Shown one piece after another: positions 1 to 32,000 of a DNA stretch of 32,000 bases. The stretch covers positions 1,260,001 through 1,292,000 of the forward strand of contig OY759724.1 in NCBI GenBank assembly GCA_963662715.1, in the 5' to 3' direction. Below the pieces are notes generated by a model. The model did not search any database. It was not told the DNA's origin and saw only the letters and a list, made by a program, of their open reading frames with translations. Positions within the stretch are counted from its first letter, which is position 1. The number at the start of each line of letters is the position of its first letter. Source of the DNA: Candidatus Omnitrophota bacterium. GTDB taxonomy: Bacteria; Omnitrophota; Gorgyraeia; Zapsychrales; JANLHA01. A program made the position numbers and the translations under genes.

Positions 1-3000
1 CCATGATCGCCCTTTCTGTGCGATAAGGACTAAGGTTTGACATCTTCGGAGAAAGGTTCTGCACCTGCTCTGGAGTCAAGGTGACCAATTCGTCATATTT
101 TGCCGGCGGCTGCACATCGAAAATAACTTCTCCCTGTGCCTGCGTCCTGATTTCAGAAGCAATCTGCGGATTCTCCTTCATTATTTCGGAAATCTTGGAA
201 ACCAAGACAGCTTCTTGCGGCTGGGAAGCGGCGTTCATGGACCCCGTCAAAGCCCTGAGATCGGAATAATTGATATCTTTCGCATCTTTAGCAACAACAG
301 AGGAAACTCTCTCCGGCAGTTCAATCGGAGAAGAAGAAGGCTTTTCTGTTAAGTCATAGGATTTCGCCATGAATTCACTGTTCGGCATTTCAACAAACTT
401 CTTTAAAGCTTTTTCATAATCATGATCCAGGTCCCCCCGGTTTTCCACAACCATAACACCGAGGACCTTCTCCTCTTCAAGCACTCTGAAGACAACCCTT
501 TGATTCCCCAGCCTGAGTTTATTAAGACCTTTTAAGGCCTGGTTGTATTCAAATTTAGACGGTTCCGGGCTCTCGAGGAAAGTTGTAAAGGAATCTGATA
601 ATCTGCTTTGGACTTGATTGAGCTTGGCCTTCCTGACGTCCTTCAACACGCGGACAGTATAGCCTTTAACATTTACCGGCTGAGCGGCTGCGGCCACTTC
701 GGCCGATGAAGAACCTTCAGTTCCTTCCCGTTTAGCGGCAAATTCTTTCTTTGACAGGCCCCAGCGCTGCAGATTATTCATAACCCGATGACGTGTCGAA
801 CCTGTCATGCTCTGTGTGAGGTCAATCAAATCTTCATACAGCTTAACTTCACCCTGGTCTACAGAATCTTGAATTAAATCTTTGATATCATCAAAAGCCG
901 CGCTTTCCTTGGCGTCCACAACAGCGCTGTCCGGAATCGGCATAATCTCCTGCTCCGGAGCGAGACTCTGTTCGGCAACCCGTAAAACCGGTTTAATTTC
1001 AGCATCAAATATTTCCTGTGCTTCTGACTTGGTGATCTTGGCAACGTCCGCCATGCGGGGCAGGGTAATATTAACATTATCGTCCTGCAATTTCACATAG
1101 GCGGCAGCCAAAGCCTGTCCTTTGGGAGAAATCCTTAAGGCATCGCCATACTGAACGACATCCTGAGGTGCTGATATGTAATTCTCTTGAATATAGGTCT
1201 TGGCCCTGGCCATTTCAGATCTGGCTTCAATGGATTTCTTCGGGCTGTTCTGGGTTTCACGGCTGTATGACAAGAGTAGATCAATAAACTTCTTAGGCTC
1301 AGTTCTTAAATCTGTCCGATCCAGTTCCTCCAGGATATCCGCTGCCTTAACGCTGACTCTTCCTCTGCCTTTGGTTAACTGAGCTTTAAACGGTTCGGCC
1401 TTCTTGACCGGACTGGACGTCGTGGCATTAACCACCGCGGATTGTGTCCCGTAATTCTCCGTGAGAATCTGCTGGAATTTAACCCGGTCGCTTGCGCGTA
1501 AAGAAATGATCTCATTACCGAATTTTTCAATCGTCTCAGCATCATCACTGTAAACCTTGACCCTGTTGCCGCGGGAAGTGACGGTAGGCGGAATACTCTG
1601 TTCCACTTTGGCTAATTTATCAACCGTAGGAATGAGTTCTCCGGCTGTCTGACCATCCAAATCAGAATCAACAACATTTGCCGTTAACCGGACCTTAGCA
1701 TCAACATCTATATTCTGATTAATTTCCTGCTCAACGGCATCAACGAAAGCCACAAAATCTTCTTCTTTTAAGTCGCGGTTAATGCCCTTGGGGATAACCA
1801 AATAGAAATTGTCCGGCGGGCCGCGAACCAAGCGCACGCCTCTGAGGTTTTGAGACTTTAATACTTTATTATAGGCTTCTGCCGAGGTCAGGATGACATT
1901 ATTCGCCAGTTCATGATCAGAGAATTCATTAATTACCTTAAATCCGAATTCCCCGTTATCATTTCCGCGCAAAGCATCGACAGTAAACTTGCCGGTGGCT
2001 ATAGATTCTTTAACTTGGGTGTCTAATTCGTCGTAAGGCACATATTTTGAGTCGTTTTTCACCAGGAACATCGCGTCTTGTGCCAATTGAGCTGTAACGA
2101 AATTCCCTAATTCCTCTCGTTTAAACGCCGGATAAGTCGGTTCCAGCTGATCCGTATAAAGCTCAATTCTTGGAGAAAGTTCCGCAGACAGGGCCGCCAC
2201 ATAATTTTCCCTTATAATCTGAGGAAGCGGCTCCATGGTTCCTTCTTCGTGATCAAAGTCTTTTAAACCTTCCTTAAAAGCTGTTCCCATGGCCCCGGCC
2301 TGGTCGCTCTCCTTGGCCAAATTAAGAATAAATTCTCCGCGCCGGATTGCCGCCCCATAGGAAGCGTCCACGCCGGAAGGCAACTGAGGAGCACGCTCAA
2401 CCCCAAAAGAAAGTTTCGGGCTGAACACTTCAAAAGGAGTCCCTGCCTGTTCGATTCTCGCATTAACGCCCGCCGCTGCTAATTTGGCATTAATAACCGT
2501 CAATCTGTCTTCCAGGCCTTTTTCCAAAGACTTGCCTTCGCGATCATAAACCACAAACGTCCCGTCAATATCTTCAAAGAAGGAATTCAACACCGTGTCC
2601 CCTAACTCTTCCTGAACCAGGTCAATCACGGCTTCCCGATGCTCAAGAGCGCTCACGCCAGCAAAATCCACCTTGCTGAATCCAAAGGCCCCGGGAATAA
2701 GCTGTTCAACTTTTTGCTGCGCTTCCTGACGGATAACATCCACGTCTTCCCTGGAAAGGTCTGACGGAAGGATAATACCAACTTCGTCCCCGGAAATTCG
2801 GATGGCCTGGCCGCCATGCTGCCGCATAACCTCATCAACAATCCGAACGCCGGCAGGAATAAGAATATCCACAACTTCTGAAGTATAGCTTTTATCCATA
2901 GCCGCTATCTTCGACATGTCGCCGAAACCAACCCATGCGCGCGGATCCTGCGCTAACTGCTCTTTCACGGCCTGAATGCCTTCCTGACCGGCTTTAACTT

Positions 3001-6000
3001 TAAAATAAGCATTCATGGCGTCAGGAGTAATAACCTTCCAGGTTGACTGCCCTTGCGTTCTGGATAAGAGCTGCATCGCTGCCGCAGAAATCGGAGAAGA
3101 GGAGGCAGAACCGCGGGATTGTCTAATATCAGACAACAGAGCCGATCCTTTTTGTTTGCTGACCGTAATCACACCTTTTGTCGTATTGGCATCCGGGACA
3201 TAGGTAAAAACATTGATATCTTTTGGTGTCATGGCTGCCGAATCATCCAACATAGCAATAGGCATATTTACAATTTCATCCATATCAGGCTCAAACACTA
3301 TACCTATAGGCTGAGCAACGATCTTGTCTGCCAATTCAGGAATAAGAAAATCAGCTGATAAACGGTCTTCTCTGCTCGGGCCAGGCACCTGACCGGACAA
3401 AACCCGGCGCCCAGGATGCGTATGATAAACTCCGAGCAATTTCTTTTCGCCCACGGCATTGGATTCAATCAATTGAGCGACATTTTGTGAATCCGGAACC
3501 AGATGTTGTCCTGTCCTCTCGGAATATTCTGTTAACGGAACCACATCCGTTATATTATACGTGCCTTCCGGTCCCTGTTGACCGAAAAGCAAGCCGGCTG
3601 ACTCTAAATAGGTTTCCTTTTCTTCCTGAGCAGGGATAATACTTGTTAGTCTGGCCAAATGATTAACAATTTTTGAAGGAACTGTGTCTGCGAGTTCAAC
3701 GGATATATTGGGAGTATTCTGCAAATTGTCAACGCTTACATTAGGATTCATCTCCTGCAATTTATCAAGAGAAGCTGTTCGTGCGATTGTGACCGGAGAA
3801 GAAACTGCCGTGGTTTCTCTAATAATAGCCCTGGCGTAGGTGGTCGGGCTTTCGGCAAATCGAACTGTATCGGTTTGTGCCGGATCCCAGGCCGTGCCTT
3901 TTGTTTCTGCTTTATCAACAACATTGGCGACAAAAGCTTTATCAATAGAGCCTTCCTGCGCCAAATTGGTCATCAAGGTATTGACGGCAAGGATAAATCT
4001 TGCGTCACGGGTTCCTGAACCGGTTTCTCCGCGGGTCATCAAACCGCCGTTTTCAATATAGTTGGCAAAAACTTCTTCGCCGTATTCTGCCTCTTCCGGA
4101 GAATAACGATACGAAGAGGCCATAATGTTATCGATGACGCTTACCGCCTGCTGGGTCGCATAATTATCAGACCGTCGGGCCGTGTTCATAATGCCTTGCA
4201 GTTCGCCGCTGGTATATTGCCCGGCTTTTCTCGGCTGATGGTTCTGCACTCTCTTTTCATTGTTGATAATTTCACGATGGAATCTTTCATGGTTGTAAAC
4301 AACGGCCGCATATTCCGTATAAGCTTCTTCGAGACTGACTCCCAGGGAATTCTGAATAGCGCCAACCGTCTGCAGGCTGAAATTATTCAAGTTAATATTT
4401 AACTTTCCGTTATCATAAACAGCTTTTCCGTCTCCTGCCGCAGCATTGGATCTTACGGAAACGATGCTCTTGTCTTTAAAGAAATCTGATTTTGCAACGG
4501 CCGTTTTGATAACATTGAACTGTTCCAGTGTCGGCTTGGCAATCTGGATTGGAGACGAAGAGGCTTCCACCTTTTGGCTTCCGGCGATATAATTTTGGGC
4601 TCTCAGGCTCTCTAACGTTGTTCCGTCCGCTTCCAGGCCACGGCCGTTAACCAACACAACCTCTTCAATACCCAAATCATTGATGATACGCTTCAATTCC
4701 CCGCTTTGCCGGGTGAAATTCGTTAATTGTCCGCTGCTGTTGACTGTGTTTGATCCGCTGTCAACCGCTAACACCAGCTTGCCGTTCTGCTTGCCTACCC
4801 GCATATATCCGCTGTAATCAACGCCGCCGGTCTTCAACCCGCCTAACTCCGGATAGTTTCTTTCATTCATAAAGGTTGCGTGCGGAGCTTTTGTCCCGTC
4901 TGTATAGACCTGTCTGCCCTTTAAGACATAGGTGATTCCTTCTGATAAAACTCCGCGCTCATCATTCGGGGCGGACTGAACTTCATCAATCGCCTGTGTC
5001 AGCCATCCGTACATGGCCGGATTCTTCTGCTCATAACTGCTCAAGCGGACATCTTTTTTCGTTTCCGGAGTAATGTCGACAGCGGACATCATTGACTTAA
5101 CGCTGTTATTAAAATCGCGCCGGATATCTGCCACCTCGGCCTTACCGTACTCGGCCTCCATCTGCCTCAGCTGATCCGCGCCCATGTCAACGATTTCCTG
5201 CACCAAAGCTTTTTCCTGTCCCCTCGGAGTATATTCGTTGCGGCTGATCATTTTTCCTAACCGATTGATCAGTGACGGGGCTCCGGAAACTCCCTCTAAC
5301 AACATCTGCCGGTTGAGGTCATTGGCCTTATTGCTGATTTCGGTCTTTTCCGCGCCGGAAGGCAGGCTATTGACTTTCCGGTTGGCCGAAGCCATCTCTT
5401 TCACAATCGGACGGGCATCATATTGCCGGTTTCCGGTTTCTGCGGCTTTGTTGTACCCCTGGACGGCTTTGTTAAATTGCTTCTTGGCTTCCTCAATGTC
5501 AAGCGCAATATTAGATATAGAGGAAGACGCTGTATCCTGAGAAAGGGCCATGCGGTCCTGGATACCGGAGAAATCTATGGACTGCTTCTTGACGTTGATC
5601 GCATTTACAAAATCCAGAGTTGAAACATTGCCCCATCTATTGACTTCATAAGCCAAGTCTTTCTGCGTATCCGTTAACTGGCTCGCATCCGCTGTTACAG
5701 CAGCTTTAACCTGATCCACGGTCGCATTGTATTGTTTGTAGGCGGCCATGGCCTGCTGCGTCGCGCTTTCCGGCAAATCAAGTTCCTGGACAAAAACTTC
5801 ATAACTGGCTTCCAGCACTTCTTTAAAGGCGCCGGCATCTTTCGTATAAGAAACATTAAAATCTGCCGGGAAGAACGCACTGTCGCCCATAACTTTATCC
5901 AAAGCCGAAATCTTCTGTTTGATTTGATCATCGCTCAGCTTGCCGGCTTTCTTCATTTTAACAGCCGCATTTGTCAAAACAGCTTTCTTGACACCTGCCC

Positions 6001-9000
6001 GGTAACCCTGATCTTCAAGAACCCGTCTGTTTAACTCATCCATTCTGGCTGTAACGGCAGCGGTCTTGACAAAAGAAGCGGCATCCTTGACGGAATACTG
6101 AACTCTTTCTTCAGAGTGGTATTTTCCGGCAACCTTCTTTTGTTTGCTGGTATACTGCTTTCCTGTAGATATATCGCTGTACGCCAGGAGATGACCGGCC
6201 ACGGACATGGAGGTCCCCGGCGCCATAGGGATAGCAGACACCTGAACATTATCTGTCGTCATGCCCCAGAGAATATTGCGGTAATATTCTGTGGACATCT
6301 GGGAAACTTCCATGGCATTGGCTGTTTCTCTGTCATAATCTTCCTGGCGGCTGTGATGGAAATGCACGCCGACTCCGGCCTTGACATTTTCCTCGCCAAG
6401 CATCACCGGTAAGCTTTCCGCCAAGCGCTGAACGCTGAACTGCTGAACCAACCATTCCTTCGCATCCGCCTTGCTCTTCACCTGATCCAGCATCGGGGAC
6501 ACGACTTCCGGACTGGCCAAATCTTTTTCTACCCGGGTCTCTCTCGGTCCGGCTTCACCGACACGATAGCCTAACTGGATTGTGGGGTCTTCGGATATCG
6601 GCTGTGCTTCACTCTCTGTCTTCCCTGTCACCACATATAATAACTTGCCTAATAAATCATCTGTTTTCTCCAGCTGAACGGACTCTAAGCCGGAGATTTC
6701 CATGTCCACGCCTATCTTGCGGTTCTGCAGGCTGTCGACAAAAAGGTCTATGAAGCCCGCATTGTCCAACTCATTAAAATCTTTTTCGGCTTCACTGCGG
6801 ATAGCGGCCCGCAACGCATCATTATTATTAAACAGCTCTACAACCTGCTGTTTAGGCAAACTTGCTATTGTGCTTGGACGTTGTTTTATACTGAAATCCC
6901 TAATTGGAGAACTTGTCAAACCGGATCCGAAACCGGAAGAAATCTTTGGCGCAGAAGACAACTGGAAGGTAGGCAGCAATCCCGAGCTGACAGGAGCCAC
7001 AGGAATGACCGGAGAAGAAACGACCGGCTGTTTAATCGTCGGCATACCCACAGGAGGCGCCAGACCGGTTGAAGATGTCACTTCCCTTGTTGAAAGATCC
7101 GTCATATCTGTTGTTTCAACAGAGCCGTATTTCTGCAATTGGGTATCCACAGAAGCCGGGCTGATATCCCCCATAACCTGCTGAGAAATACTGCCGGCGG
7201 AATCTGAGGATTGAGATATCTGTGACTGATAATAGTTGGTCGCATATGGCATAATGGCTGTCAAAGCTGCCGGAGCGTCTACAACAGGAGCCGGAGAAGT
7301 TCCGCTTGGAGCCCCATCTCCCCGTCCCGAGGCTTCTGATTTTCTAAGATCTGATATCTCGGCAGGATTCTCTTCTGTTTTCCAATTTCTTCTTTGTCTC
7401 TTTGACGTTGAAGAAGCTGTATCTTTTCCAGAATTTTTGGAAGAAGAACTTTCATCTCCCCGCCCCGAAGCTTCCGCTTTTCTAAGATCTGATATCTCGG
7501 CAGGGTTCTCTTCTGTTTTCCAATTTCTTCTTTGTCTCTTTGGTTTTGGAGGCGTCATCGAAGCTTCTTCAATAGAAGAGGACACCTTCACTTCTTTACT
7601 CTGCTCTGGAGGCGTTACGGAAGAATCATCCTGTTTGGGAGGAACAAAACCTTTCTTTTTGCTAGGATCCGTAGAAATCCTCTTGCTGCCCGTAAAGACA
7701 GATGAAATATCAGAAGACGCGTCTAAAATCGGCGAGGATTGTCTTAGCGGGCCTTCGGTTGAAAGATCCAGCATCATCTGCCAATAGTCCTTAACCGCTC
7801 CTGAGAAATCCTCTTCCTTGGTCGCACTCTTATTAGCATAATACGCCGCCAAGACCGTCTTTCTAAAATCTTTTAAGGCTTGAGGGTCTTTTTCCACCTC
7901 AGCAATATCAAACCACCTCTGTCCCATCAAATCACGCGTATTCACATCAAACGCCAATACTCCCGAAAGCGTCACCCGCGTCCCCATTTTCTGCAGTGCT
8001 TCCGCCGTTCCTGCTTTTGTTAATATGCTCTCAAATCTCCTCTGGCTCGTTAACACCGATATCATGTCCTGAGGACTTAACAACGTTAAAGACGTCTCCT
8101 GCGGCCCAGCATATTCCTCCAATGCTCTGGCATAAACCCCTGTCAGTGTATCGCTCTCTTTTTCCGCTTTCGTAAACGAATTGTGCACATGCGCAAATCC
8201 AAGAGAATGATCCGCCTGCTGGTTCTTTAACGCTGTCTTTAAATTGAACGCCGCTGTCGGATACACAAACCGAGGACTCGAGAAGGTCTCGATCCCCAGC
8301 TCCCCATCCAAATACAGGTTGTCTGTCATCCCGTTAATCTGACCGTTTTCTATTGAGAACTGCCCTGCCACCTTCTGCGCCTTGATCGTTTCGATGACTT
8401 TCTGCTCTAACTCTTCATTGCTGATGCTGTCTCTTTCCCGGCCCGGGAACATTTCATGCAGCTTCTCGGCAGAGAAGAACCGCGCCATGGAAATATCCTG
8501 CGCCAAGACAATATCTTTCCCTGATAAGAAGAACCGGTTGCCGTCATCCTGCTCCACTTCCGAAATGATCGGATGTGACGCGATTTCCAAGCCAAACTGA
8601 TACGTGCCGCCACCGTTGACTTTCCGCATGGCCGGCAATGCCCGGGTCCACCCGTAAATATTCTTGTCTAAATCTCTCACATCATTCACACCCAAGCTCT
8701 TGGGAACCAGAATATGGGAGAATGTTCCGCCCGGGTCCATGGCAATCAGGTAAACTCCGAATTCTATAGGCTGGCTAAACTTCCGAACATCTTCCTGGAA
8801 CACTGTCTCAATCTCGCTCAAAGGATATCTGAATTTCGTTCTCTGCGGCGAAACCGCTGCCCCGTTCTCCCTTGGTTTTCTCCCGAATAAACTGATGGGA
8901 GAAGACTGTGCTGTTTCTTTATCTAATAATGATGAGCTTCGCGCAATCTCAACTTTCTGCTCTTTTTGAATAGAGGAAGAAACTTTCGGCTTAGAATCAT

Positions 9001-12000
9001 TAAATGTTCTCACCATATCACCAACGGCTGATTCTGCCTTCCGGGCACCATCTTCTTCCTGAAGCGCAACAACAATATTATCTATTTCAGAGACACCAAA
9101 AGCACCCGCAGCGCTAACCTCCGGCTGCTGCAACTTTTGAACGATTGTTTCTGTTAATTGGTCCGGACTCTTTGCCCCGGACAAAGCAATCTCCGTAACG
9201 ATTTCGCCCAGAACCGGGTTGTCTACAGCTGCCGCATGAATCTTTAATGTATCTCCTTCTTGTGAAACCAGAGGATTTTGCAGCCCGCTAATCACTTCAA
9301 TAGTATTTACTCCCGTCACCATTAAGTCAGACTGTTTATTTAAACTGCTCTGAAGTTTAACTTTTTGCTCTGGAGTTCCCTGCACAGCCACCAAAGACTC
9401 TCCCACCTGCAACGGCATACCCACATCGAGATTATACTGGGTAAAGAATTGCCTAAGCTCTTCATTGCTTTGCATCTTGCCGACCAAAGCTATCAAATCC
9501 TGATCCCCTGCCCCGGAATGGAACCTTATGGCTTCCTCCGGAATATGAAGGAAAGGTGAAACATGGCCAAACAATTCTACGGCTGCTCCGAATTCGGTTT
9601 TCGCAAGAGGCATCTCGGCTAACTTGTGCAAATCTTCCTTGGTAACGATATGACCCGGTTTCTGTAATGTCTGCAATTGATTAAGGAAAGCCACTGTAGA
9701 CTCATCCGTTTCGTCAAACTGACGGCTCTTTTGAATACGCTGTTCTATATGCTTTAATTCCGTCTTCACCTGCTCCAAGGAAAGATCTGTCCGTTGCGAA
9801 TCTTCAATCCCGGCAATCAGGTCATACACTGGGTGATCGTATTTCATGTTTCCCTTAGCCTGATATTTATCCAAAAGATTGCCTACAAGGGTTTTCAATT
9901 CTTCATCCCCAGATTTTTCAACAATGTCTTTCAATTGTGATAAACGACCAACCACAAACCCAGGGGAAGATGTTTCTTTCTTTTCTGTTAAAGCATGATT
10001 TCCGTCATGGAACAAAGCCATCAAGTGACTGACAAAATCCCTTCGTGTCTTTTCCTTGCTAATATATATCTGCGAACCCGGACCTCCTGTTTCACTGTCT
10101 TGGTCATCAAATTCTTTATAATTCGCAAGCGTACCCGGAGCATACATACCCTGTTTATTGTTCGCGACATTCAATTCATCCTGAATTAAATACTGAAGAT
10201 CCACTCCCGCCTCTTGGAATGCCACTAAGAGACGGTCAATTTTCTGGTTAAAGGCGGCTTGGGTTTCCGCATCAAATTGGCCGCCCAGCCGTAAATTAGG
10301 TTTGGACGCCTCGACAGCACTCTTCATTTCTGCAAAAGAAAGATCCTTAACCATGGCCATATTATACTCCCGGCCTGAGGCTAATTGGCCAAAGAGCGGG
10401 CCAACCAAGGATTGATCCCGGCTGTTCTGATAATGCGGGCTTTGAGAGAGGACGTAGAACGGAAGCATTGTGGCTAACAATTCGTTCCATGACCCATCCC
10501 CGGCATGCTCAAAACCATAATGCTCTTGGCCACGCACATCTACACTATATAACCCTTCCTTAAATATACTGCCATCGACAACCTCTCCGCCTTCGTTAAA
10601 TAAAGCTTCTGTTGCCCCGGCCCCTAAAACCCGGTCGAGACGTTTTGTCTGCACCCATTGTTCTCTTAATATCTTTTGCCCTTGCGGTGTCTTATCCAGA
10701 TTATTAAGCGTATCCAGGAAGTGATGGCCTAAAATTTCGTGAATAGGCTCCCAGACCTTCTTATAGGAATCACTCTGTCCTTTTGAACTAAAACCGCTCA
10801 AGGCTGTACGGATATCTGTAGTGCCTCTGGCATGTTCTGCTGCCGCCTCACCTTTCTTGTCCATTCTCCGGCCAGGAACCAAAGAGAAGCTCACCCGCTC
10901 TAATTCTGCTTCTAATTTTTGATCTCCAAAAAGAGCCTCTCCTTGCCCAACCCCCAAAATGTCTTTGGCCAACGGCAAAACATCCCGCTGCCAAATAATA
11001 CTTCTCGTTTCCATTTCTTTGGATATCCGGTTCAACTGGGAAACGACCTTTTCCGCATTATAATCAACCGTGCTTGCCCCCTGTAAAATTCGATATAATT
11101 TAGCCGCTTGAGCATTAGTTAAAGAATCGGACAGGCCTAAATCAAAGCTGCTCTTAAGCTGGTCAAACTTATCCTGAACAACCCCTCTTTCATCAATATA
11201 TCCATTCTCCACTAATTCAGAGAAAAGACTGTCTGCTTTTCTCTGTTTTCTTGCCGCGCGCTCTTTAGAGGAAAGGCCTTTCCCCGTAACCGTAACGACT
11301 GAAGCCAAGTCCTGTGCTGTAACAGGCCGGCCGGTCTCTGAACCAGCTACAGCCAAAATCTGTCTGTTTATTTCTGCTCTTAAAGCATTTTGTTTTTCTG
11401 CTACCACTACTTTCCGTTTCTCCAGCTCGGTTCTTTCTTCTTGAGAAATGTTTCCTTTCTTCTGCAAACCGGATTCCAATTCTTTCAGGTCAGCTTCTGC
11501 TTTCCTCTGCTCAGCCACTAAGGCATTGAGCATCGGCAACACGTCCGCCAGCAAAGCTTCTCCAGCTCTTTCGGCAAGATTAGCCGAAGGAGAGTCTTCC
11601 GAAGCGTTTAATTCATTATATTTGTGCTCGTACAGAAGAGCGATAACCGTATTCTCAACACTAAGGCTCTCCTGCAATTGTTTTTTACCGCGTCCCACAG
11701 GAGCAATAAAGTTATCAATCGACCGGTCATGAACTTCTATTTGGTCAAAATCAGCAATATTATCCGGAACTGTCAAACCCTGCCCGTTATTCAAAGCCTT
11801 GATATATCCGCTATCCAAAGACAAATTCTCTTGCGGAGCCACGGCAATTCTTAATTTGGCCTGCTGCAGTCTTGTTTTATAAGCTTTAGCCTGTGTCGAC
11901 TCGTTGCCGTTGGCATCTCGAGGAGCGACACCCAACAGAGTCAAGGTATCATCTTCACTTAAATTCAATTCCTCGGCAACTTTATTCACCATATAAGGGG

Positions 12001-15000
12001 TCACCATTCTCATCTGCCTGTTTCCGCTTCCCGCCATAACAGAATCCGCCAATTTACCCAATCGGGAATAAAATTTGTATTCCACAGAATTCTTATCATA
12101 ACTTTCCAAAGTCGGTCCCAAAGCATCAATGAAAGCTAAAATTTGCCGGCCTTCTCCATTAGGAGACATGAAACGTAACGGCAATTGCCCGACAGCATTC
12201 TTCATAAAGGTGCTTCTTTCAGCCCGATTCATAAAAATATTCCGCAAATTATTAAATTCCCCTGTCGAGGCATACATTTCATTAGTTATAAGTTCGGTCA
12301 TCATACGCATTTCACGGCCGTTTCTTAAAGCATGTCCCTCACTGCCTCCTATACCTAAATCACTAAGACTCATAAGTTCACTAGCGTATCGCTTCTGATC
12401 ATCCTGTCTCATCTCGACAGCTGCTTTTTCCCTGGCAGCTTTAACTTTTTTCACAACCTTTGCCACATATTTACTTGGTTTCACGCTCTTATCTGCTGAA
12501 ATAACCCGGTCAATGACTCTATCAATCAATTCCGGAGAATAAAAATCATCAAGAGTCAATGTACTCTCAACCAATGCTTCATTCCCGGATATTTGTGCGG
12601 CATTTGCGCTCTGCTCGCGGATCATGCTGTCCGCCTTCTGCCAAACAGGATTATCCCTATAGGTCCCCACGGCATACAAACCAGCCATAATTTTTAAAGC
12701 TCTGAACCGCTGATTGCCTTTATCTTTACCGGTTAAGCCTAAAACTTCCTGAGCCTTTTTGATCGTTCTGACAGAAGGACTTGAATAAAGGCTTGTTGCT
12801 TCACTCAATGTGGCTTTATCTTCTTCCTCCCCTCCGAGAGAACTATTGATAATGCTGAATTGTTTCGCCCGTTCCTGAACAATCTCCATCATAAAGTCAG
12901 AGACCTCTTTGTCGTTTACAACGCCGGCCAAAACTTCTTGCTTGCGCAGGGGATCGTCCTCTGAAGCATAAAGCACGGACATAAAATCTTCCATAGACAG
13001 GTCACCAGGTCCAATTAAACCGGCAGCGGCTAATTCCCCGATATTATTGTCTAAATTCAGGAAATTGGAAAGTCCGGATGTAAAGGAATGAGTGAAGCTA
13101 ATATACGAATTTTGAGCCAAACTCACGGCAACATCCATCCCCTTGACAAAGTTTGCCCGCAGATCATCCTGTGTTAACGGTGCCGCTAAATTGCCTTGAC
13201 TGTCTCTTGTTCTGCGGGCAAGACCAAATGTTCCTGTTGCAGGATCAAGTTGAGGGGCTGTTCCTTGTGGCATAACTTTAAATATTCGGAGCAATGCCTG
13301 TTCCTGCGGACCGCTGAGCGTTGCCAAACTCGCAAAAGTTTCAAGGGCATCAGGATTAATCTGGCGGTCGAGATCGCTCACTCCTTCCGAGACATCGGAA
13401 AGGACCCCGGGAATGGCGGCAAGAGTCTGGAAGTACGTTTCTGCTTCTTGCCCGGAAATATTTACAGCGTCAAACAACTCGCCCACCGTCTGAGGAACAG
13501 CCTGACCGTTCCAAACCTTTCCCTGAGGACGTAATGGAACAAAAGTATCGCTTGCGGTCTTCCCAATAGTAATTGTTGTCTGATTTTCAAACCCGGGATA
13601 TTGTTGAGTGAAGTCTCCCATTTCGTTACGGGATAAAATGGATTTTGTAATATCTGCCACTCTGTCTGCGGCTAAGAAATAAGGTAAGGACTCACCTGCT
13701 GTCGGTCCGCCGTAAATCAGACCTTCCAACATAGACTGTGTTTTGGGAAGCAATAAAGCAAAAATTTCGCTGTTTCTCCCCATTTTCGTTTCCATAAATC
13801 TGGCCGTGGAATCCAAGGCATCCCGTATAACAAAGTCCGTGGCACGGGCTTCTTTAAATTTGTTCATCAAAATAGAATCCGAGGTCAAGGCCTCTGTTCT
13901 TAACAATTCCAAAGCCCTAATAACGTTTTCCCGCCCGCCCCCTGGCGCTGACCGCTCAGCCATAATTGCATCGTCAATCGCCCGGTATTTCGGAGTCATT
14001 GCTAATTCCACGGCTAACCGCGTATTTTCTATTCTTGACGCCATTCTTTGATTCTTATTTAATGTCTTTACGACAAAATCATTATATGCCTTTGGCCCTT
14101 GTTCTCCTGTAGAGCCTTTTTGTTCCGTGGCCAAAAGAACTCGAGTCGGCATATTGGCAAAATCAATAGATTCTTTGCCGCTGGCATCAAAGCTCATAAT
14201 CCCGCGAGGCCGGCCTATAGCCTGCCTGACCATTTCAAAGAAAGACCGCGGAGTAGAAACAACGATCGCGATACTGTCTGCTTTAAAACCGAAGTTTGCA
14301 CCAACGGCTCTCGGCCCGAATGTAATAATAATCGGTGCCTCATTGTCAAAATGCATCTTCTTTAAACTATCGACCTTCCGATTGCCTTTAATAGCCTGCG
14401 AAAGAGTTTCCCCGCTGGCTCTGTCCCAAACAATTTCCCGGCCATTGGTATCCAGAACAATGATTGTTGACTTTTTGTGAGTTGGAAGCTGTCCGACACT
14501 TGCCTCAATTTGTTTTACAACTTTTTCATTCACTAAATATGTATCCGGGAAGAAGAGGTGCAGGGCTCTCTTGGCCAACGACTTCCCTCCGGAAATCGCA
14601 TCAATATTATTAACGATGGCTTTTCCAGGGTTTGATTCACGGGCTGCTATAAATTTATCGGTTTCGTTTTCCCCTGGTCTGAACGGGACCTGCGAACTCC
14701 CCATGGCATTTGAGTCTTTTATACTCATGGTGACCAGTTCATTAGCGCCATAAAGTTTTAGCATTGTGGGAGATAAAGGCGAGGCGCTGATCATTAAGAC
14801 ATTTGATCCTTCAGTCTTAACAAGATCCCTCATAATTGTGTCAAAACTAACCCGGGTGATTGTCTGTGTCACTTCAACGCCTTTCGGATTTCCTTTTTTA
14901 CGACCAAAAATCGGGGATTGGATCAATTCATCCATAACCGGCCTGATGAGATCCTGCACTTTCACATCATAAGCTTCGCCTCCCATCAAACTCACCGGAC

Positions 15001-18000
15001 GGGATCTTTGTTCTCCCAGCGGAGCACTATATGTGCGATACAATAATGGGAGAATTTCCCCCCAGGATTCTATCCCGGCATTGAAAGCAGCGATTAAAGC
15101 GTCCGCTTCCGTATACCCTTCCTTCAACCCGTACTTTTCGAGAACTTTCTTATCCAAAGACAATCTTTTATTTCTATTTCTTGATAGCTTATCCACCCCT
15201 TCATGAATCGTAAAGCCTTCTCGAACCGTGCGCATTGTTTCTCTTTGACCTTTGGAAACCAAAATCTCTGTCAACCATGCCTGGACCAATTCCAAAGAAG
15301 CAATAGCTCTTCCGCCTTTTTCTCCCGGCTTGCTGATCCACTGTTTTCCCTGACTGTCTGTTCCGCTTAAAAAGTGCATCATATCTTCAAAATTCTTTAT
15401 GGTCTGTCTCTGCTTCGGATCCGGATGATTTTTAGCAAGTTTTCTAATAGCTCTGTCTAATGCCTTGAACGCTTCCGTAGAAAAACCCTGCAATACTTCC
15501 GGAACATATCTGACTTCCCCGGTCCGTTTGCTTAGATTAAGGAAAGGCATATATTCCAATTTCGCGGCCTCATCAAGAATCACATGACGGCCAGTCCCTT
15601 CTCCTTTACCATTTACCCTTCTTTTCATGGCATTGTATATATTCGAGTAGAGTTTGCCTTGAGCCTGATCGGCCTTCTGGCCATAGACTAATTTTATAGT
15701 ATACGGGGAGGTCACAACCAAATCGGCATTTTCCAGATTCGCCAATACGCCAGCCGGGTCACTCTGCACATCTTCCATTTTCACTTCGACAATTTTCTTT
15801 AAACCTTGCTTGGCTAATTTTTCACCATGTTGCTTCTTCAGAAAATCTATCTGCTCACGAACCAAGGCATCCGGAACAATAACCAATGTTCCTCTTCCTG
15901 TAAAGCTATTATAAAGGGCCTGTGCAATCATTAAAAACGTGGATTTTCCAGCACCTGTTTGAGCCGTAATATAATTAACTTGCGCAGGAGCTTTCCCTTT
16001 AGTATTACGAGCATGCGCCGCATCAATAACATTAGCCCCGTTTAGAGCCAAAAACATTTCCGGCTGCCCTGCTTGTAGCAATTCATATCCTGTAATTTCC
16101 GAAGCCGTTACAAGAGCCTTGGCCAAGGTAGGATCCAGAAGGGGTTTTCTCGTCCGTATATCCCAAATCGTTGTCAACTGAAGGATTGTCCTAATATCTT
16201 TAATTTCCTGACCGCCAATAAATACTCTTACCGGTTTTCTGCCGTTCATGGCATTGGCGACTTTCTGAAGATCACCATAAGAACTAAGAGTACTCATCTC
16301 AATGACTTGCGGTTTTTTGTCCCGGCCGGTAAACAGAGAGGCGAACCCTTTTGCTTTTATTTTTAGTTCTGATACTATTCTCCTCATTCTGGACCGCTGT
16401 CCCAGCGGCATGACTGTGACGGTCGGGGTTTCTGTGGCGGATTGAGGCGTTGAAGAGCCTTTTTTGGCTGTTGTTTGAGGCGTGGTTGAGGGGGCGTTTT
16501 TCTCCGCAGAAGTAGGAGGCCCGGTCTTCTTGGTAGCGTCTTTTGCTTCTGTTTCGGTCTTCACGTCCCTCTCTTTTGGCGGAACTCTCAATGGCGCTGG
16601 CAACAACGCAATAGACGTCCACAAAGATAACTCGGAAGCAAGTTCTCCCAAATGGGCCAATCCTTTCTCACTGTCCAAGCCTTCCCCGCCGGTTAAAATA
16701 TTCAAAACATATTTCTCTGCAGGAGTCGCTGTGTCCGCTGCCGTTTGTTTGGCCAAATTCATCAAACCCGGAGTAAAAACATGTTGTGTCAAAAGATCAT
16801 TGGCCCCCAGGAAGACCGACAATTCATCAGCTTTGGCTATTTGTTTAACCAAAAACGATCCGCTCAAGCCTTTTTCCCCTACCTCTACACCTAATAAACG
16901 ATGGAATTGATTCCCTTCGCTAAGCAAGGTTTCCATGCTGACCGGCTTTTTCTTTAACGCGGCTTTTCCTGTCCGGCCAAACAAACTCAAATAGCCTCCG
17001 ATACCCCGATTTGTCGCCTCAAGCCTGGCAAGAGAAGAATACGCTGTGGGCATCATAAAATGAATAAGAGGTCCGGTTGTCGTACCGCCTTCCAATCCGC
17101 CACCGACAGCCTTGAAATATTTTTCAATCATTCCGAAATATTTCAATTTATTGGACGGAGCATCGCTGCCATAGTTTGCGCCGAATATATTTAAAACACC
17201 CTTTGCCGTATCTTTTGTGGCTTCCCAAAGAACACCGGCGGAGGCAAAACCGATGCTTCCCTGAAGAGACATCATCGGGACAGTCAATGACTTTTTCAAA
17301 GCCTGACTAACTGTCGCTACCGGAGCTGCTTCCATAGCCCCTATCTTGGCAATTCCTCCGGAGAAAAACTTTTTTACTTGCAGGATATTTGCCCCGGCAA
17401 TAAACAGAAAGGCCGCAGCCAGCCGGGTTTCAGTGGAAAGATCTTTTCCGTCACTGATAAAATTCTTATAAATGTAATTTGGGCCAACATATCCAGAAAC
17501 GCCTGCCGCAGTGGTTCTCAAGACTCCCTTAACCAAGGTTCCCGGCTGGATAGCTGCTATGCCGCTTTTTTGCGCGTCAATAGAAGGAAGAACTTTTTCC
17601 GCAGCTTTCTCAGCGGCTAATTTTGTCCCATATCTTTCAGCTGCGACAGCGAAATTTTCAGGCATCGTGACGCCTGCTTGACCTGACTTAAGCGCATTAA
17701 GAGTTGATCTTTCAGCTAATGCCATACCAACGGAATTAACGACAAAAAATGCCATTCCTAATCCAGCTCCCCAAAGCCCTGACTTGTTAAATGATCTCCC
17801 AAAATCCCCCAAGCTAAAGGATTCCTCATTAATTATAGCTTCCGAATAATCCGATAGCCCTCCGGACAAGCCCCAGGTAGCATACATAGAACCGATACCA
17901 GCCAAACCTTTTAAATTGGCTATGTTGCCGGCACGAGTCAGAAAGCTGCCTTTCATTGTTGACAAGAAGGAACCTGTTCCCAAATTCGGATTATATCCGC

Positions 18001-21000
18001 CCATCTTCCCGGTAAACATCTTGGAAGCAACATAAACAGTGGCAAATAAAGCCGGCCCTTTGGCAGCGCCTCTCAAAGCCGCGGCTCCCCAATTAGCGTC
18101 CCGCTGATCGACAAAAGCAGAGATACCTTCGTTCGCCATAGCGCCCAAGGTCGTTATACCGGTTACAGTCGGTAAACCCACAGCAATTCTCGCCGCCTCA
18201 CCCTTTAAACCTTCAGCTGTCAAAGCCTTGCCAAAAGCTCCCAGCTTAGGATATTTCTCTGCCACACGACCTCCCCAAGCAACTAAACGCGGACTGACTT
18301 TTGCCAAAGTTAAGCCTCGATTCGTAAGGAAAGTAGCGACTTTGGCCGAGCCTTTAAGAAAACCTACTGTCAAAATAGCGCTTTTCAGGTTTTGCTCTAA
18401 ATTCATAAATTCGCCGGTCATGCCCAAATGAATCAAATTCTCAACAAGCAAAGTCGTGGCGACTTTCATTCCGTATTTTTTAATACTTTCTTTAACAACT
18501 TGCTTGGCGCCTTCCTTAATAGTAGCGAGAGTTATCTGCTTTCCAACTTCTAGTCCGGCCTTGACCCCGGCCTGTTTGGCGGCATTGACAATGTTCCCAA
18601 CCCCTGTGAGAGCCAAAATAATGGTAATAGGAGCGGTAATCCCTTCAACCCATCCCTCAACCTGCGCTACGGTATTTAATTTTTTCCCTTCAAAGATAAA
18701 ACCTCTAAAAGTCTGATCTCCGCTGAGCAATCCTTCCGGAAGAATAACATTGCCCTTCCGATCTTTTCTCTCGTCATTGGACAAGGATCCCAGCAAACGA
18801 ACAACATCCTGCCCATCCACAATCCTTCCCATAAGCGCATTTTCATCTTTATCAAAATGCACCGCCAAATAATTATTTGTGTTGGAATCGGTATCATAAA
18901 CATCAAACATGCCGCGATAATCGTTTTGGCTCAAAAGCATAGACCCTATCTGATCATCGGACAATTTATCCGTAGCATAAAAGAAATCCCTGTCATTCAA
19001 CTTTTTATCTTTGGAGTTCTCATCTTTACCGGAGAATCTAATATCATCCACGTCCAGCTTGGTCTTCAGGGGCAAAAGATCGGTAAGGACATTACCCTCA
19101 GCATCGGTAAGATAAGTGTCAAAATCATCTCCGCCAAAACCGCTCCAGCTCATAAAATCCTTTAACGTGATTACCCCTACGGTCGAAACCACCTCTCCAT
19201 TAAACTGGGCTGCTACGTCTGCCGGGAGGTTTTCATCCTCATGAAAGTCTTCACTGTTGTCTTCGACATGCTCTCGCGATCCGGCCTGCCGTCCATACAA
19301 ATTGATTTCACTCGCATAAAATTGCTTCTGAATGCCATTTTCATCAACAACAATAAACTTTTCTCCCTTTCTCATCTTCTTTATCAGCTGAAATGGCATA
19401 TATACGGGGTTGCTCATCATGCTCTGATCTTGCATACGATCCATTACCAGGTCAATTGAACGCATTTCTTCCTCTTCAGCCCATTTCTTAGAACTTACGG
19501 TAACAGGAACCTGCTTGCCGCCTATATTAAGAAATACCTGCTTCAAGTCACCGGATTTTGGACCAAAAACATGACTTTGATCGATTTGATGCATGGCAAT
19601 AATATTACCATCCGCATCCAGTTTCAAAACGATCTGGTCATTATCTCCCCTGCCGTCGGATTTGCTGCTGAAAAAGCCCGCTTTTCTCTTAGTCTGAAAA
19701 TCATTTAAAGCCTGATCAAGCTCTTCCCCTGTCACACCTCTAAGATCCTGCAGCATCTCTTCGTTATCCAATCTGCGATCAAAGGCATAAGCTATGCGTC
19801 CGCTTTTCGTAAGCATTCTATATATCTTCTCGCTGGAGTTATTCACAAAAGCATAGGACCCATCACGGATAACGGCTCCATTTGTTGTGCCGCCTCTTAA
19901 AATCTGCACCACTCTTGACATCTGAGGATATAAAGGTAAAACAACGACTCCAGACCCGGTCTCAAGATTAATAAGCAATTCACCGCCGCCATAACTGTCC
20001 GTACCAATCAGGCTATTCATGGCATTCAGAGAAGCTTCTAATGTCGCGTCTATTTCTGTTCCGGCGTCTTCTGCTGTTGATGCCAGCATAATCCCGTCCA
20101 CAGACATCCCGTTATACTCAACGCCAAAAGTATAGTCATCATTCGCATCACCCAAATCCAGATAAGCTAAAGATCCGCCCCCTAATATGTCTTTAACCCT
20201 GAACTTCTGGGCAAAAGCTTTGTTGGGATCGTAGCCGCTGCTTTCATCATTGGCCGGATCATCTTTCTTCAGCACCGATAAAACACCACCCACAACGTTC
20301 GGAAGAAGAACCCCGCCATTCTCTGCCATCCCCGCGTTATTTTCATCATTATAAGCATTCTCATTATAAATTGAAGTTAACAAGGAATACGTCGTTGGCG
20401 TAAGAACTCCACCCGAGCCCAAGACAAATGTCAGTCGTCCGTTCCCGCTGGTCGTCCAGTCATCAATGGTGGCAGCTATCTCCTGATCAGGAGTCAGATA
20501 AACCGTTCCGTCTTCCCCGGTTCTTTTATTTTTGATCGAATACATGCCTCCGCTGTCTATTTGAAATTCCGGCCGGCCGGCTGCCTTGGATTTTTCAGGG
20601 TCTTCCGGAACAAAAGCAAAAGATTCCCAAACCCCTCCCTTTTCTGCGAACCGGGCCGTCCCTGAAAAATTCACGTTCATGATTCCCAAAACTTCCTGAG
20701 CTCCGTTGAAAAGCTCCTGAGCCGAATAGACGATAGCGCCATCGGATTCTCTCTCTTTACCATCAATACCTCTTGATTCAACAACAACATTGAAGAACGC
20801 CATGACTTCTCTTAATGCCGTCTCTTCCACATCCGCCATCTGTCCATCCGTGGCTTCGGCAATAATAGCGGCAACATCTTTGTCAGAAATAAAATATTTC
20901 GGTTTTACCGGGGCCATAGCAAACTCTTGATACCCCGGCGTTTCTAAATCCTTTTTATACTGAGCATAATCTTTCTGATATTGACTCGCCACCTTTTCAA

Positions 21001-24000
21001 TCTTGTTTAATATCTTCTGCACCGTCGGGTTGTTTTTCAAAGCTTCCAGATCATCGGGAAGCGGGGCGCTAAGATCATCGACCTTTGACCGTGCATAGGC
21101 ATTAATCTGGCCGGCCAAATAAAGGTTCATTTTCTGAGTGAAAACTTTAGCAACTTCCTCCATTGTATACTGCTTATTTAAATCCATTTGCTCTCTGGCA
21201 GCAAAAAGATGGAATTGACCGTAAATCTCTCCCATTTTAATACCGATAAGCAACTGATCTAAATTAAAACCAATCCGTCTTCCGCCCTCCACAACTTTTA
21301 TTCCCGCCAATCTGCCATCCGCCTCATCGCTATAGAAAAGATCCGCAGTGATTCTTTCTCCCGTACTCTTTGCGTCTTCTCCTTCTCCTACTTTAATCTT
21401 GCTGTTCTCCCGGACAGAAAGGAACGGAATTCCTGAATTGGCGTCTCGAGCTGATTTATCTATGGCATAAATGCTTCCCACCCCAAACGGCGTATGGGTT
21501 GGTGTGCCGGTAAAAACTTTGGATTTCTTTCCCGTGGCCTCATCGGTGACGATTTGACCAAAAGCAAAAGCGAGGCCCTTTGCCTTTGTCTTGTTCTCAT
21601 CCAGATATTCTTCATCGTTCAGGGATGTCAAATCAGACGCACGATATACAACCAACCCCTGTTTGACCGACAACTCATCCGGCCTCAAAAGCAATGCTCC
21701 TTCAGCCGGGGCATCTTTAAAGTTTACGGCTTCTTCCTCTTCTGCCGACTCTCCCTGGGCTTTCTTTTCCTGTATTTCGCTAAAATCAATATCTATTTCC
21801 GTTGGATTTAGACCTAAAACATCGCCTCTGGCAACCCGGAAATAGCTGTTGGCCAAAGAAAGGTCATCAGCCCAAAATGCCGTTACTTTTCCACCGACAT
21901 TTCTTAATTTATTAATCACAAAATCCGGAGTCTTTCCGACAACGGATTCCACAATATAATCGATATTCAACTGGGTGGGGTCATCCTTCATGGCCTGGGT
22001 AATATGCAAATCATTGTAGGCCGCAGACCTCTCGTCCATCAAGCCTTTCATAGCGGCAAGAGTCAGGCGTCCGTCCCGCCCTGTTACGCGGACATTTCCG
22101 TCCTTCAATTGAACGGTTTCATCAAAATCGCTCACAAGCAAAGCCACATTTTTCTGATAACCATCTTCCATATATCCGAGACGGACCTGTTGTTTGAAGC
22201 CTTTTGATGATGTGATCTCTGCAGATGAAACCTCCTGGCTTTCATCTACATGGCCCTCCAAGGCCCCGCTTTGCTTAAGAAGAAATGTTTGGCTTTGGTC
22301 AATATATGTCAGCGTGTTACCGCCGTCTCTGATAGAAATCGCCCCATTCGCTAAAAATATTGATTCAGCCACGAAAGGCGTGAAAGCCTCATCTACGGTA
22401 ACCGTCTCTCCCGCTTCTTCAAGTTCGGCTTTTATTTCTTGAGTATCTCCTAAAATAACCTTTGTCTGTACATGCAATAAACCTTTGATCCCAGCTAAGT
22501 TGCCCGAAGCAACACCATCGAGAATTTCGACATCATCAGCAGCATTCACCTTATAAACGTCTTTCAACCTTTTAACGCTGTTAACCCTATTCTCAACATA
22601 AAAACTCGACAGAGATTGATTCATCTGCAAAGGATTCTCTTCCGTACCAAAATTTGCCGTAAGCCATGGATTTGCCAGGAAAGAAAGGCCTCTCGTCCCC
22701 TGCCCCTTAACCTGATTCGTATCTTCTTCATTCGCATTACCTTCATAGTCTTCGGCCGCATAGATATCGTCACCGCTGACCCCGCCCACTCCAGCCAAAT
22801 AAACATTGACCGCGCTTCCGTTTTCCAATGAAAGACGGGTTACATGTTTGGGGTTCATCACAACATTATCGTGCGCCATACCTTCCACATCTTCAGAAGA
22901 AAGACCGCCTGGGCCTGGAGTCCCGCCACCCTTGGAAACCAACCTTTCTCCCAGCCCGGGAATCATAGCAAGCAATTGAGGACTTAGAATCTTTTCAAAA
23001 AAGGCAACGCTCGCAGACGCGCCATCCCCTTGCCCCTCTACTTCCCCTTGAACTGCCCGGCCGCCGACAAAAGGTTTGAGCATGCCGTCTTCATCAATAC
23101 CAAAAAGAGAAGCGCCTTCTCCCCGTTCAAAATCTAACACCGTGGAATCAAGCTTATTCCCTTCCCTGTCCTTCAGCGTTATTGTCGCCTTAGGATCTTT
23201 TGTCAATTCGCCCGCACCCCAGAGATGCGTAAATTTCGGGTCGTTTATCTTTGTGGCAAAGAAATCGCCCTCTTCCCCTATATCGCCGATTTTTTCTTCA
23301 TCAAACTTAACCCGGAGATCCTTAATCTTTGCAGCCACCTCCAGCTTTTGCTCCAAAGTTAACTCATCAACTTCTTCGGGGGTAGACAAACCTAGTTCTG
23401 CCTGCAATAATGTCCTGAAAGCTTCCGTATTCACCAGATTTTTCAATTCAAGGGAACTCACCAAAAACGAATCCCCGGTATATCCCATTTGCCCTTCCTG
23501 TCCTCTTAAATAGTAGGAAATCGAATTATCATCATTAATTTTAACTATTGTGTTGTTAACAGTCATTTGTCCATTAAGAGGATGTGCCCCGTCTTCATTC
23601 CCGTATACGGCAATTTTCGGATTCCTGGCAACAAACTCATCCACGCGGATCACAAAAGGATGGGCTTCATAAATCCCTGCTTCTTTGTCATGTAAAAATA
23701 GATACGGAAGAGCTCCACCAGTTTCTTCATTATATAGCATATCCGTGGAGTACAATTCAGCAACGCCCTGTTCTATTGTTTTGTCATAAACAACCGAGCC
23801 TTCTTTCTTTTCTCCGCCTTCTTCCCCTTTAGTAATATAGTGAATATAACTTCCTAAAATAGCCGCGTCATCAAATCTCAATTGTTGAGTAGCTTGGTCT
23901 ATGGATGTTTTCGCCTCGGCAATTAAGCCGGTGGCCGATGCTTCTCTAGTAATAAAATTTTCCGCCCCACCCATTTGCGCCAATAATTCTGTTTCGATAT

Positions 24001-31718: not shown

Positions 31719-31880
31719 TTAAAAATTAACCAGCTTTAATTTGCAGCATTTGGCCAACTGGCGACCCTGAGTACAAGTGGTAGGAAAAATTTGAAGCTTA
31801 CTAGGTAATGACACAGAATAACAATTATTATATTTTACTTTGAATCCACCTCCGTTTAAATTTGATTTAGTTTTAGACAT
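31719..31880 (-). CDS. Speculative 53-aa basic, Cys-rich small ORF (MSKTKSNLNGGGFKVKYNNCYSVSLPSKLQIFPTTCTQGRQLAKCCKLKLVNF)
   Basis: This is the internal Met of the listed 69-aa ORF and lies downstream of the terminator hairpin. Its stop codon at 31719..31721 is 10 nt from the giant-gene ATG. Against it being real: it is clearly more AT-rich than the giant ORF, it has no convincing RBS, and there is no room for a promoter after the terminator. Confidence 0.25.
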   Translation of the reverse strand: MSKTKSNLNGGGFKVKYNNCYSVSLPSKLQIFPTTCTQGRQLAKCCKLKLVNF

Positions 31881-31890
31881 TGGCTTACCC

Positions 31891-31924
31891 AAAAACAAAA
31901 AAGCCACCAAGTGGTCTTGGTAGC
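31891..31924 (-). terminator. Rho-independent terminator-like hairpin plus T-tract for a minus-strand gene ending beyond or near the right window edge
   Basis: The minus strand reads gctaccaag-acca-cttggtggc, a 9-bp stem with one G-U pair and a 4-nt loop. It is followed by ttttttgttttt. Confidence 0.6.
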
Positions 31925-32000
31925 CCATAAAATTGCTACAAAATTTCAGAAATGCTTTCTGTTAGCAAAAATTTCATTATTCTGTTGGCCCTCTTTTTTG

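Follow-up and report, generated by a model that had tools for sequence, protein, structure and literature searches.

The window analysed here, a 32,000-nucleotide stretch of a Candidatus Omnitrophota genome (contig OY759724.1, positions 1,260,001 to 1,292,000), is filled by one giant open reading frame (ORF) on the minus strand, and the protein that it encodes contains a JAB/MPN+ module of the JAMM metalloprotease type, which is the subject of this report. In a six-frame scan of the window, one frame is free of stops from nt 2 to 31711; counted from its ATG (31706-31708) it has at least 10,569 codons, and it is still open where the window ends on the left. No other ORF exceeds 250 residues. 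Self-BLAST of the giant ORF detected no internal repeats at E < 1e-5. Its recognisable Pfam content in tiled scans of the whole ORF is scant and consists of C39, glycine-zipper, DEAD-like, JAB and GGDEF matches. The JAB module occupies an internal position: at least 1,030 further residues of the giant protein follow it.

Translation of nt 3092-3721 on the minus strand includes YLESAGLLFGQQ and LLGVYHTHPGRRVLSGQVPGPSREDRL, and the stretch ESAGLLFG is encoded at nt 3581-3604. A sequence-only reading of this DNA had placed a JAMM module with the motifs ESAGLLFG, HTHPG and PSRED at 3270-3630. The three motifs indeed read on the minus strand within these limits and supply the E, HxH and S-x-x-D residues, whereas the domain as a whole proved wider. 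That reading had remarked neither on the strand nor on the single giant ORF around the module. All five catalytic positions (E9370, H9430, H9432, S9446 and D9449) are present in the module. The count of 13 residues between HxH and Ser was also correct, and the module thus departs from the canonical H-x-H-x7-S-x-x-D spacing of the published JAMM motif, EXnHS/THX7SXXD (PMC300881). Only one stretch of the 10,570 residues fits the pattern H.H.{5,20}S..D; because about 0.06 chance occurrences are expected from composition, the motif match alone is only suggestive.

Searched in isolation, the module scores above the gathering cutoffs of both Prok-JAB (PF14464; 29.2 bits versus 25, E 9.4e-7) and JAB (PF01398; 23.7 bits versus 22.5). 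In whole long proteins the JAB score is sub-threshold, and tiled scans are therefore needed. The desampylase model alone matches the module in NCBIfam, as do the JAB (Cap3-type) models alone in PADLOC, in both cases weakly and with alignments spanning Glu40 to Asp119. RadC (PF04002), Toxin-JAB1 and DUF4329 are missing among the Pfam matches, reported at E <= 1 for a 1,570-residue segment and at E <= 0.01 for the module. Of the "JAMM/RadC-type" assignment made earlier, the JAMM residues and the MPN fold were borne out, while the RadC-type reading was rejected, since RadC is not among the reported Pfam matches. Compared with PDB sequences, a profile of the JAB family described below gave 29 distinct matches at E <= 10, every one of them MPN/JAB. 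The family profile was needed for this result, as the single module sequence gave no PDB match.

The AlphaFold2 model of the module, built from a 21-sequence family alignment, has a mean predicted local distance difference test (pLDDT) value of 87.5 and a predicted TM-score (pTM) of 0.85, and an MPN fold is predicted with confidence. A Foldseek search with this model returned 108 PDB matches at E <= 1e-3, and the 50 listed are all MPN-domain chains or complexes containing them. Among these 50 are CSN6, the Caldiarchaeum Rpn11 homologue with ubiquitin, Rpn8/Rpn11, Zn-bound Rpn11, BRCC36, DSY2949, a bacterial deubiquitinase (DUB) of ubiquitin-like proteins (Ubl) and Cap3. The named significant matches in the viral library BFVD are MPN/JAB proteins as well. 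As is usual for canonical JAMM enzymes, HxH lies in the model at the end of a strand (residues 94-101), and S-x-x-D is placed on a helical turn. The spacer insert is modelled as a short ordered helical turn (residues 105-108) with pLDDT values of 86-93, and the MPN core is followed by about 60 additional C-terminal residues that form two strands and a helix. The profile search and the structure prediction by which the sequence-only reading had proposed to check the domain both came out in its favour, the structure prediction in respect of the fold and of where the catalytic residues lie in it, and on this profile and structure evidence we rejected the possibility of a chance motif.

The homologous-protein search retrieved one partial relative with the single sequence and none with the family alignment. 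The family set comes from a HMMER search of 1.84 billion representative proteins (clusters at 50% identity), which gave 27 relatives with E-values from 1e-31 to 3e-4; conservation was counted over 28 sequences. Nearly all relatives carry JAB in long multi-module proteins or fragments thereof, up to 7,277 residues in length, and wherever a relative is assigned to a taxon, it is a hypothetical protein from a Candidatus Omnitrophica/Omnitrophota metagenome-assembled genome (MAG). Domains that occur together with JAB in some of the relatives are HATPase_c, methyltransferase, Metallophos and GDPD. The small homologues begin with signal-peptide-like N-termini and all are Cys-poor, which is consistent with export.

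Overall identity within the family is 25-58%. The catalytic Glu is kept in 21 of the 25 sequences covering its column, the first His in 24 of 28 (one has Cys), the second His in 27, the Ser in 24 and the Asp in all 28; Gly114 and Glu144 are invariant in the family alignment. Four members are degenerate and have lost catalytic residues, namely the subclade P0019, P0022 and P0025, plus P0026. As these members show that the residues can be lost, selection maintains them in the clade of the window module. The His-to-Ser spacer measures 12-14 residues throughout the 28 sequences; 25 of them have 13, a single one has 12 and another 14. A conserved "PGPS", in which the Gly is invariant and the Pro near-invariant, stands directly before the Ser. 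The loop that had been noted as unusually long in the single sequence is thus a fixed family trait and the hallmark of a distinct JAB clade.

A second motif was observed elsewhere in these proteins. Thirteen JAB-family proteins contain exactly one "GGID[FL]", 62-136 residues from the sequence end, compared with none of the four degenerate-JAB proteins. The motif stands at the start of a conserved C-terminal domain without annotation, of which there are two kinds (P0004-P0018, P0023 and P0032; L002 at 13321-13720 and L005 at 15219-15425), and the proteins bearing it share signal-peptide-like N-termini (MKRKFPKILYFL).

Table 1. Features of the giant ORF and its JAB module, in window coordinates.
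Feature	Position (nt)	Strand	Basis or remark
Giant ORF	2..31708	-	Six-frame scan; 3' end beyond window position 1
Candidate catalytic Cys173 of the C39-like domain	31193-31195	-	Sequence (FNCG)
Peptidase C39-like domain	30821..31063	-	PF03412; weak NCBIfam bacteriocin-exporter peptidase matches
Glycine-zipper membrane segment	30254..30376	-	Pfam; within the N-terminal hydrophobic-helix cluster (aa 47-610)
DEAD/SecA-like P-loop helicase stretch	15551..15970	-	PF00270, E 6.9e-4, below gathering score
HERFH, sole HExxH in the giant ORF (0.07 expected)	4277..4291	-	In the 250-residue module that immediately precedes JAB
SSPV linker motif on the upstream side of JAB	3791..3802	-	Motif scan
JAB/MPN+ (JAMM) module, 210 residues, giant-protein residues 9331-9540	3092..3721	-	Pfam, AlphaFold, Foldseek, homologues
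Predicted general base Glu E9370 (in ESAGLLFG)	3602..3604	-	Alignment; module residue E40
Predicted zinc ligands H9430 and H9432 (H-T-H)	3416..3424	-	Alignment
13-residue HxH-to-Ser spacer PGRRVLSGQVPGP	3377..3415	-	Translation, alignment
S-R-E-D: S9446 and third predicted zinc ligand D9449	3365..3376	-	Alignment; D119 in module
SSPI linker motif, directly downstream of the JAB module	3089..3100	-	Motif scan
Tandem GGDEF-like (palm/cyclase-like) module, ~560 residues, directly after JAB	1412..3091	-	Pfam, homology

The C-terminal third of the giant protein is a string of modules, and [ST]SSP[VI] motifs are concentrated there, at several of the apparent module boundaries. SSP[VIL] is observed 10 times in the giant ORF against 0.45 expected (about 20-fold) and 58 times across the family against 3.1 expected (about 19-fold). 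Besides the two sites that flank the JAB module (Table 1), the giant protein has eight others, at aa 1410, 7603, 7992, 8232, 8267, 9052, 10099 and 10460. SSP[VIL] stands 11-30 residues ahead of the JAB match in seven homologues, and the same motif marks module limits in 10 of 26 relatives; 16 of the 27 JAB-bearing sequences examined (relatives and window ORF) have no SSP[VIL]. [ST]SSP[VI] may serve as a linker, or else as a site of processing or of glycosylation. On the upstream side of JAB, the module bearing HERFH had no Pfam match and may, judging by this motif, be a zincin and a second metallopeptidase.

The two halves of the GGDEF-like module read FGDM...RISGDEVGIILP and FGFKVINE...VRGPPDNFYLVIP; their counterparts of GGDEF are "SGDEV" and "GPPDNF". 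The Pfam GGDEF match is sub-threshold in the window module (E 0.002), and the homologous module of P0015 reaches 24.7 bits, above the cutoff of 23.8. The sequence suggests a pseudo-dimeric palm/cyclase-like unit. An AlphaFold model from a 3-sequence alignment was unusable (pLDDT 39.6), and the homologous-protein search with this module gave no matches. JAB and the GGDEF-like module are also adjacent in P0010, in the same order, and in P0015, in reversed order; the "VRGPPDNFY" and "FKVIND" elements occur in opposite order in these two proteins. A genome scan yielded one locus, L001 (CAZQQI010000004.1, 8853-29104), which has only the GGDEF-like module in common with the window protein, at 39% identity over 538 residues. 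It belongs to a MAG labelled "uncultured Planctomycetales bacterium", its giant ORF is Cys-free and open over all 20,252 bases fetched, and JAB is absent from the visible 6,750 residues. Metagenome scans returned no matching locus. After the GGDEF-like unit, a ParE/RelE-toxin-like stretch was seen at 437-658 on the minus strand (GNQRVVFRVLEEEKVLGVMVVENR), with a weak Pfam ParE_toxin match (E 0.033). Outside the window, no partner gene is conserved across the neighbourhoods of the three homologues P0005, P0014 and P0032; a further homologue, P0024, lies on a 1.7-kb contig without neighbouring genes.

Near the N-terminus of the giant protein, Peptidase_C39 (PF03412) matches with an E-value of 1.6e-7 and 31.7 bits, against a cutoff of 22. 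Hydrophobic segments form a cluster at aa 47-610 and are followed by a few weak ones up to aa ~4,650-4,670, and then by none. The protein has four cysteines, all between aa 173 and 406, and the next 10,164 residues are Cys-free; the relatives are Cys-poor too, with one Cys in 7,277 residues, none in 3,166 and none in 6,750. The DEAD/SecA-like stretch carries a Walker A motif, AQTGAGKST, and then ILDEAA. Omnitrophota giant proteins span 10,000 to more than 100,000 residues and are largely Pfam-dark. With respect to the C39-headed group of these proteins, the window ORF has the length and the N-terminal C39 domain, and its best homologues are in Candidatus Omnitrophota. The host of the giant protein is probably a predatory Omnitrophota nanobacterium.

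In the C39-like peptidase (30821-31195, minus strand), the catalytic Cys (FNCGVYAL) and His (EHFVTV) seem to be kept. Known members of the C39 and JAMM families cleave after Gly-Gly, and if the C39 residues are indeed kept, the giant protein would combine two peptidases (C39 and JAMM) from Gly-Gly-cutting families. A terminator-like hairpin with a T-run at 31901-31926 (minus strand), about 190 nt upstream of the ATG of the giant gene, presumably belongs to the preceding gene and marks where it ends. At 31832-31860, also on the minus strand, there is a promoter-like site.

The stretch at nt 3092-3721 encodes a JAB/MPN+ domain of an unusual small subfamily. The data above establish what the domain is and how it folds, that its catalytic residues are intact and kept in the family, that the spacer length is fixed, and in what architecture it sits. 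For its function, we infer zinc binding, peptidase chemistry, action in trans and a substrate class, and the module is probably, though by no means certainly, an active Zn (iso)peptidase that is carried as cargo by a C39-headed Omnitrophota giant protein and acts in trans. We favour an optional trans-acting (iso)peptidase, rather than a general processing enzyme or a deubiquitinase of a classical Ubl system, because of the kinship to peptidase-type JAB domains, the rarity of the family, the lack of a Ubl partner, and the occurrence in Cys-free exported or anchored proteins. By analogy with the canonical JAMM site (PMC300881), H9430, H9432 and D9449 would hold Zn2+, E9370 would activate the zinc-bound water and S9446 would help to stabilise the tetrahedral intermediate. 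The 13-residue spacer would add an ordered turn beside the metal site and probably reshape the substrate cleft, so that specificity should differ from that of ubiquitin-type JAMMs. The module would be one interchangeable enzymatic cargo among many in a C39-headed, membrane-anchored and almost Cys-free giant protein. Its most likely chemistry would be the hydrolysis, in trans, of a peptide or isopeptide bond in a substrate with an extended C-terminal tail, where the bond lies at that tail and the substrate is a cell-surface target, a prey-cell target or a partner protein. Candidate substrates would be proteins of the prey or the surface that have extended tails, prey conjugates of the Ubl/SAMP type, or cell-wall isopeptides.

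Several observations weigh against this assignment. The Prok-JAB score falls to 24.9 with a 1,570-residue query and to 23.6 with a 5,000-residue query, both below the cutoff of 25. TM-scores of the model to known MPN structures are 0.4-0.5 when normalised by the query and up to 0.67 when normalised by the target; in view of these moderate values, the periphery differs from that of known MPN structures. As to the topology of the JAB-bearing stretch, no hydrophobic segment follows aa ~4,650-4,670, and the stretch carries domains that use nucleoside triphosphates. Tiled Pfam scans of the whole ORF gave no match to ThiF, E2, ubiquitin or ThiS/MoaD, and no Ubl, E1 or E2 genes were found in the neighbourhoods of P0005, P0014 and P0032. 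Owing to the lack of such partners, the classical JAMM substrate class is missing. Finally, Zhang et al. 2012 (PMC3482391) proposed a possible nuclease function for divergent JAB toxins that are exported.

This last point leads to the possibility that the module is a nuclease-type toxin delivered to prey, as proposed for RadC, Tox-JAB-1 and Tox-JAB-2. The description of exported JAB toxin domains as possible nucleases in the work just cited (Zhang et al. 2012, PMC3482391) fits with the exported, Cys-free character of the proteins and with the weak ParE/RelE-like stretch as a toxin-like neighbour. However, RadC, Toxin-JAB1 and DUF4329 were not among the reported Pfam matches, the best matches are the peptidase-type Prok-JAB and JAB, and the weak NCBIfam match is to a desampylase. 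The module is also internal rather than C-terminal, and no immunity gene is visible in the window, the 3' flank of the gene lying outside it. We consider a nuclease function very doubtful. The same low probability applies to a deconjugase or trimming enzyme that works together with the neighbouring GGDEF-like module, in the manner of Cap3 and CD-NTase in type II CBASS (cyclic oligonucleotide-based antiphage signalling system) or of a Bil Ubl-DUB pair. The adjacency of the two modules in the window, P0010 and P0015 would agree with such a coupling, as would the presence of Cap3 and a bacterial Ubl-DUB among the structural matches and the fact that the sole PADLOC defence matches are to the CBASS JAB and E1-E2-JAB models (E 2e-4 to 0.06). 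The PADLOC scores are weak, however, and the adjacency is limited to 3 of 28 sequences, two of which are closely related. Neither the ORF nor the surroundings of the homologues examined yielded an E1, E2 or Ubl domain, and L001 has the GGDEF-like module and no JAB in its visible 6,750 residues. GGDEF palm domains are, moreover, unrelated to CD-NTases. A catalytically dead, MPN-minus-like scaffold that mediates protein-protein contacts within the giant protein would be in line with CSN6 and Rpn8 among the top Foldseek matches and with the four family members without catalytic residues; many MPN domains are non-catalytic. This is extremely unlikely for the window module, being contradicted by a site that is intact at all five catalytic positions and kept in the large majority of a family with 25-58% identity.

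The GGID[FL] and SSP motifs bear on a different role, in which the JAB module would be the maturation protease of a polyprotein, in cis or in trans, cutting after the Gly-Gly of GGID[FL] or at [ST]SSP[VI] linkers. Such a cut would release cargo modules, comparable to the trimming of Ubl precursors after Gly-Gly by JAMM enzymes or to the autoprocessing domains of MARTX toxins. The single GGID[FL] in 13 family proteins and in none of the four with degenerate JAB speaks for this role, together with the approximately 19-fold enrichment of SSP[VIL] in the family and its position on either side of JAB in the window and flanking it in several relatives. Published work calls the cleavage points of giant proteins unknown, and names C39 or S8 domains as possible processing enzymes. 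Nevertheless, few long proteins have JAB, the part of L001 that is visible has none, and 16 of 27 JAB-bearing sequences are without SSP[VIL]. The GGID association is confounded by phylogeny, with a sample made up of JAB-bearing proteins only, and the window ends before the C-terminus of the giant protein, where a GGID site would lie. JAMM enzymes are not known to act on Ser/Pro linkers, and we rejected the cutting of SSP linkers as the main explanation, given that most JAB-bearing relatives lack the motif. Overall, a maturation role appears unlikely. The narrower proposal that the x13-spacer JAB is a Gly-Gly-directed maturation protease, which clips the GGID[FL] domain or [ST]SSP[VI] junctions after export and so frees cargo onto or into prey, must be regarded as more unlikely still. 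Because the family is rare and JAB is absent from the visible part of L001, we view the module as optional cargo and not as a core processing enzyme; a general processing protease of giant proteins it is probably not.

As for the wider meaning of a trans-acting (iso)peptidase cargo, the domain itself is very well known and the giant-protein class has already been described; the x13 spacer, the multi-module setting and the finding of no Ubl partner are new. The JAB module adds to the domain catalogue of Omnitrophota giant proteins, and, as an apparently active JAMM module, it is one of a handful of recognisable catalytic domains in the 10,570-residue stretch. The x13-spacer family is compact and can serve as a profile for searches. 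The prokaryotic JAB domains that have been characterised mostly work in the cytosol together with ubiquitin-like systems, and the presence of JAB in exported, nearly Cys-free modular proteins without a Ubl partner suggests that its substrates are of another class. If polyprotein processing, or an attack on prey conjugates or cell-wall isopeptides, proved true, it would provide an experimental handle on giant-protein biology. If Gly-Gly-directed maturation did, these proteins would for the first time have concrete cleavage sites, together with an enzyme that processes them.

Among known systems, the best profile match of the module is to the prokaryotic JAMM peptidases (Prok-JAB PF14464; AfJAMM, the HvJAMM1 desampylase and the Mec+/QbsD trimmers), with which it has the E...HxH...SxxD residues and the MPN fold in common. 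The target-normalised TM-score to the module model is about 0.64-0.67 for DSY2949 (2kks) and the Caldiarchaeum Rpn11 homologue. These peptidases differ in having a spacer of 7 residues instead of 13 and in lacking the approximately 60 extra C-terminal residues of the module. They are also small cytosolic proteins, whereas the module resides in exported or giant multi-module proteins and, in three homologue neighbourhoods, is without a Ubl, E1 or sulfur-carrier partner gene. The eukaryotic MPN+ deubiquitinases (Rpn11, CSN5, BRCC36 and AMSH) have the same fold and motif and dominate the profile and Foldseek lists, but their identity to the module is only 11-20%, and neither their complexes nor their Ins-1 and Ins-2 are evident in it. 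The insertion of the module is located elsewhere, between HxH and Ser, and its host is bacterial.

The Cap3 and Bil Ubl-deubiquitinases are, like the module, JAB proteins of bacteria, and they act as isopeptidases; the module matches 9ild_A and 8tyx_B, and weakly the PADLOC JAB models. The CD-NTase partner of CBASS Cap3 is loosely paralleled by the nucleotide-cyclase-like neighbour of the module, which is GGDEF-like and not a CD-NTase. However, Cap3 and Bil are genes of operons, the module is a domain of a giant protein for which no E1/E2 (Cap2) or Ubl partner was found, and its scores are far too weak for membership. The polymorphic-toxin JABs (PMC3482391) resemble the present case in that an exported JAB lies within a large modular protein of inter-organism conflict. 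In contrast to these, the module is internal and not C-terminal, neither RHS or filamentous repeats nor an immunity gene were identified, and there is no Toxin-JAB1 or DUF4329 match.

Overall, the architecture matches the one reported for Omnitrophota giant proteins by West-Roberts et al. 2023 and in a 2026 preprint ("PF03412 Peptidase C39 group"). JAB, JAMM and MPN are not mentioned in the searchable text of these two sources; this omission is probably due to the sub-threshold score in whole-protein scans, and it is understandable because full-length scans under-score the domain. The features in common with these giant proteins comprise a length of more than 10,000 residues, an N-terminal C39 domain near membrane helices, a DEAD/SecA-like stretch, GGDEF-like content, mostly Pfam-dark sequence and closest homologues in Omnitrophota.

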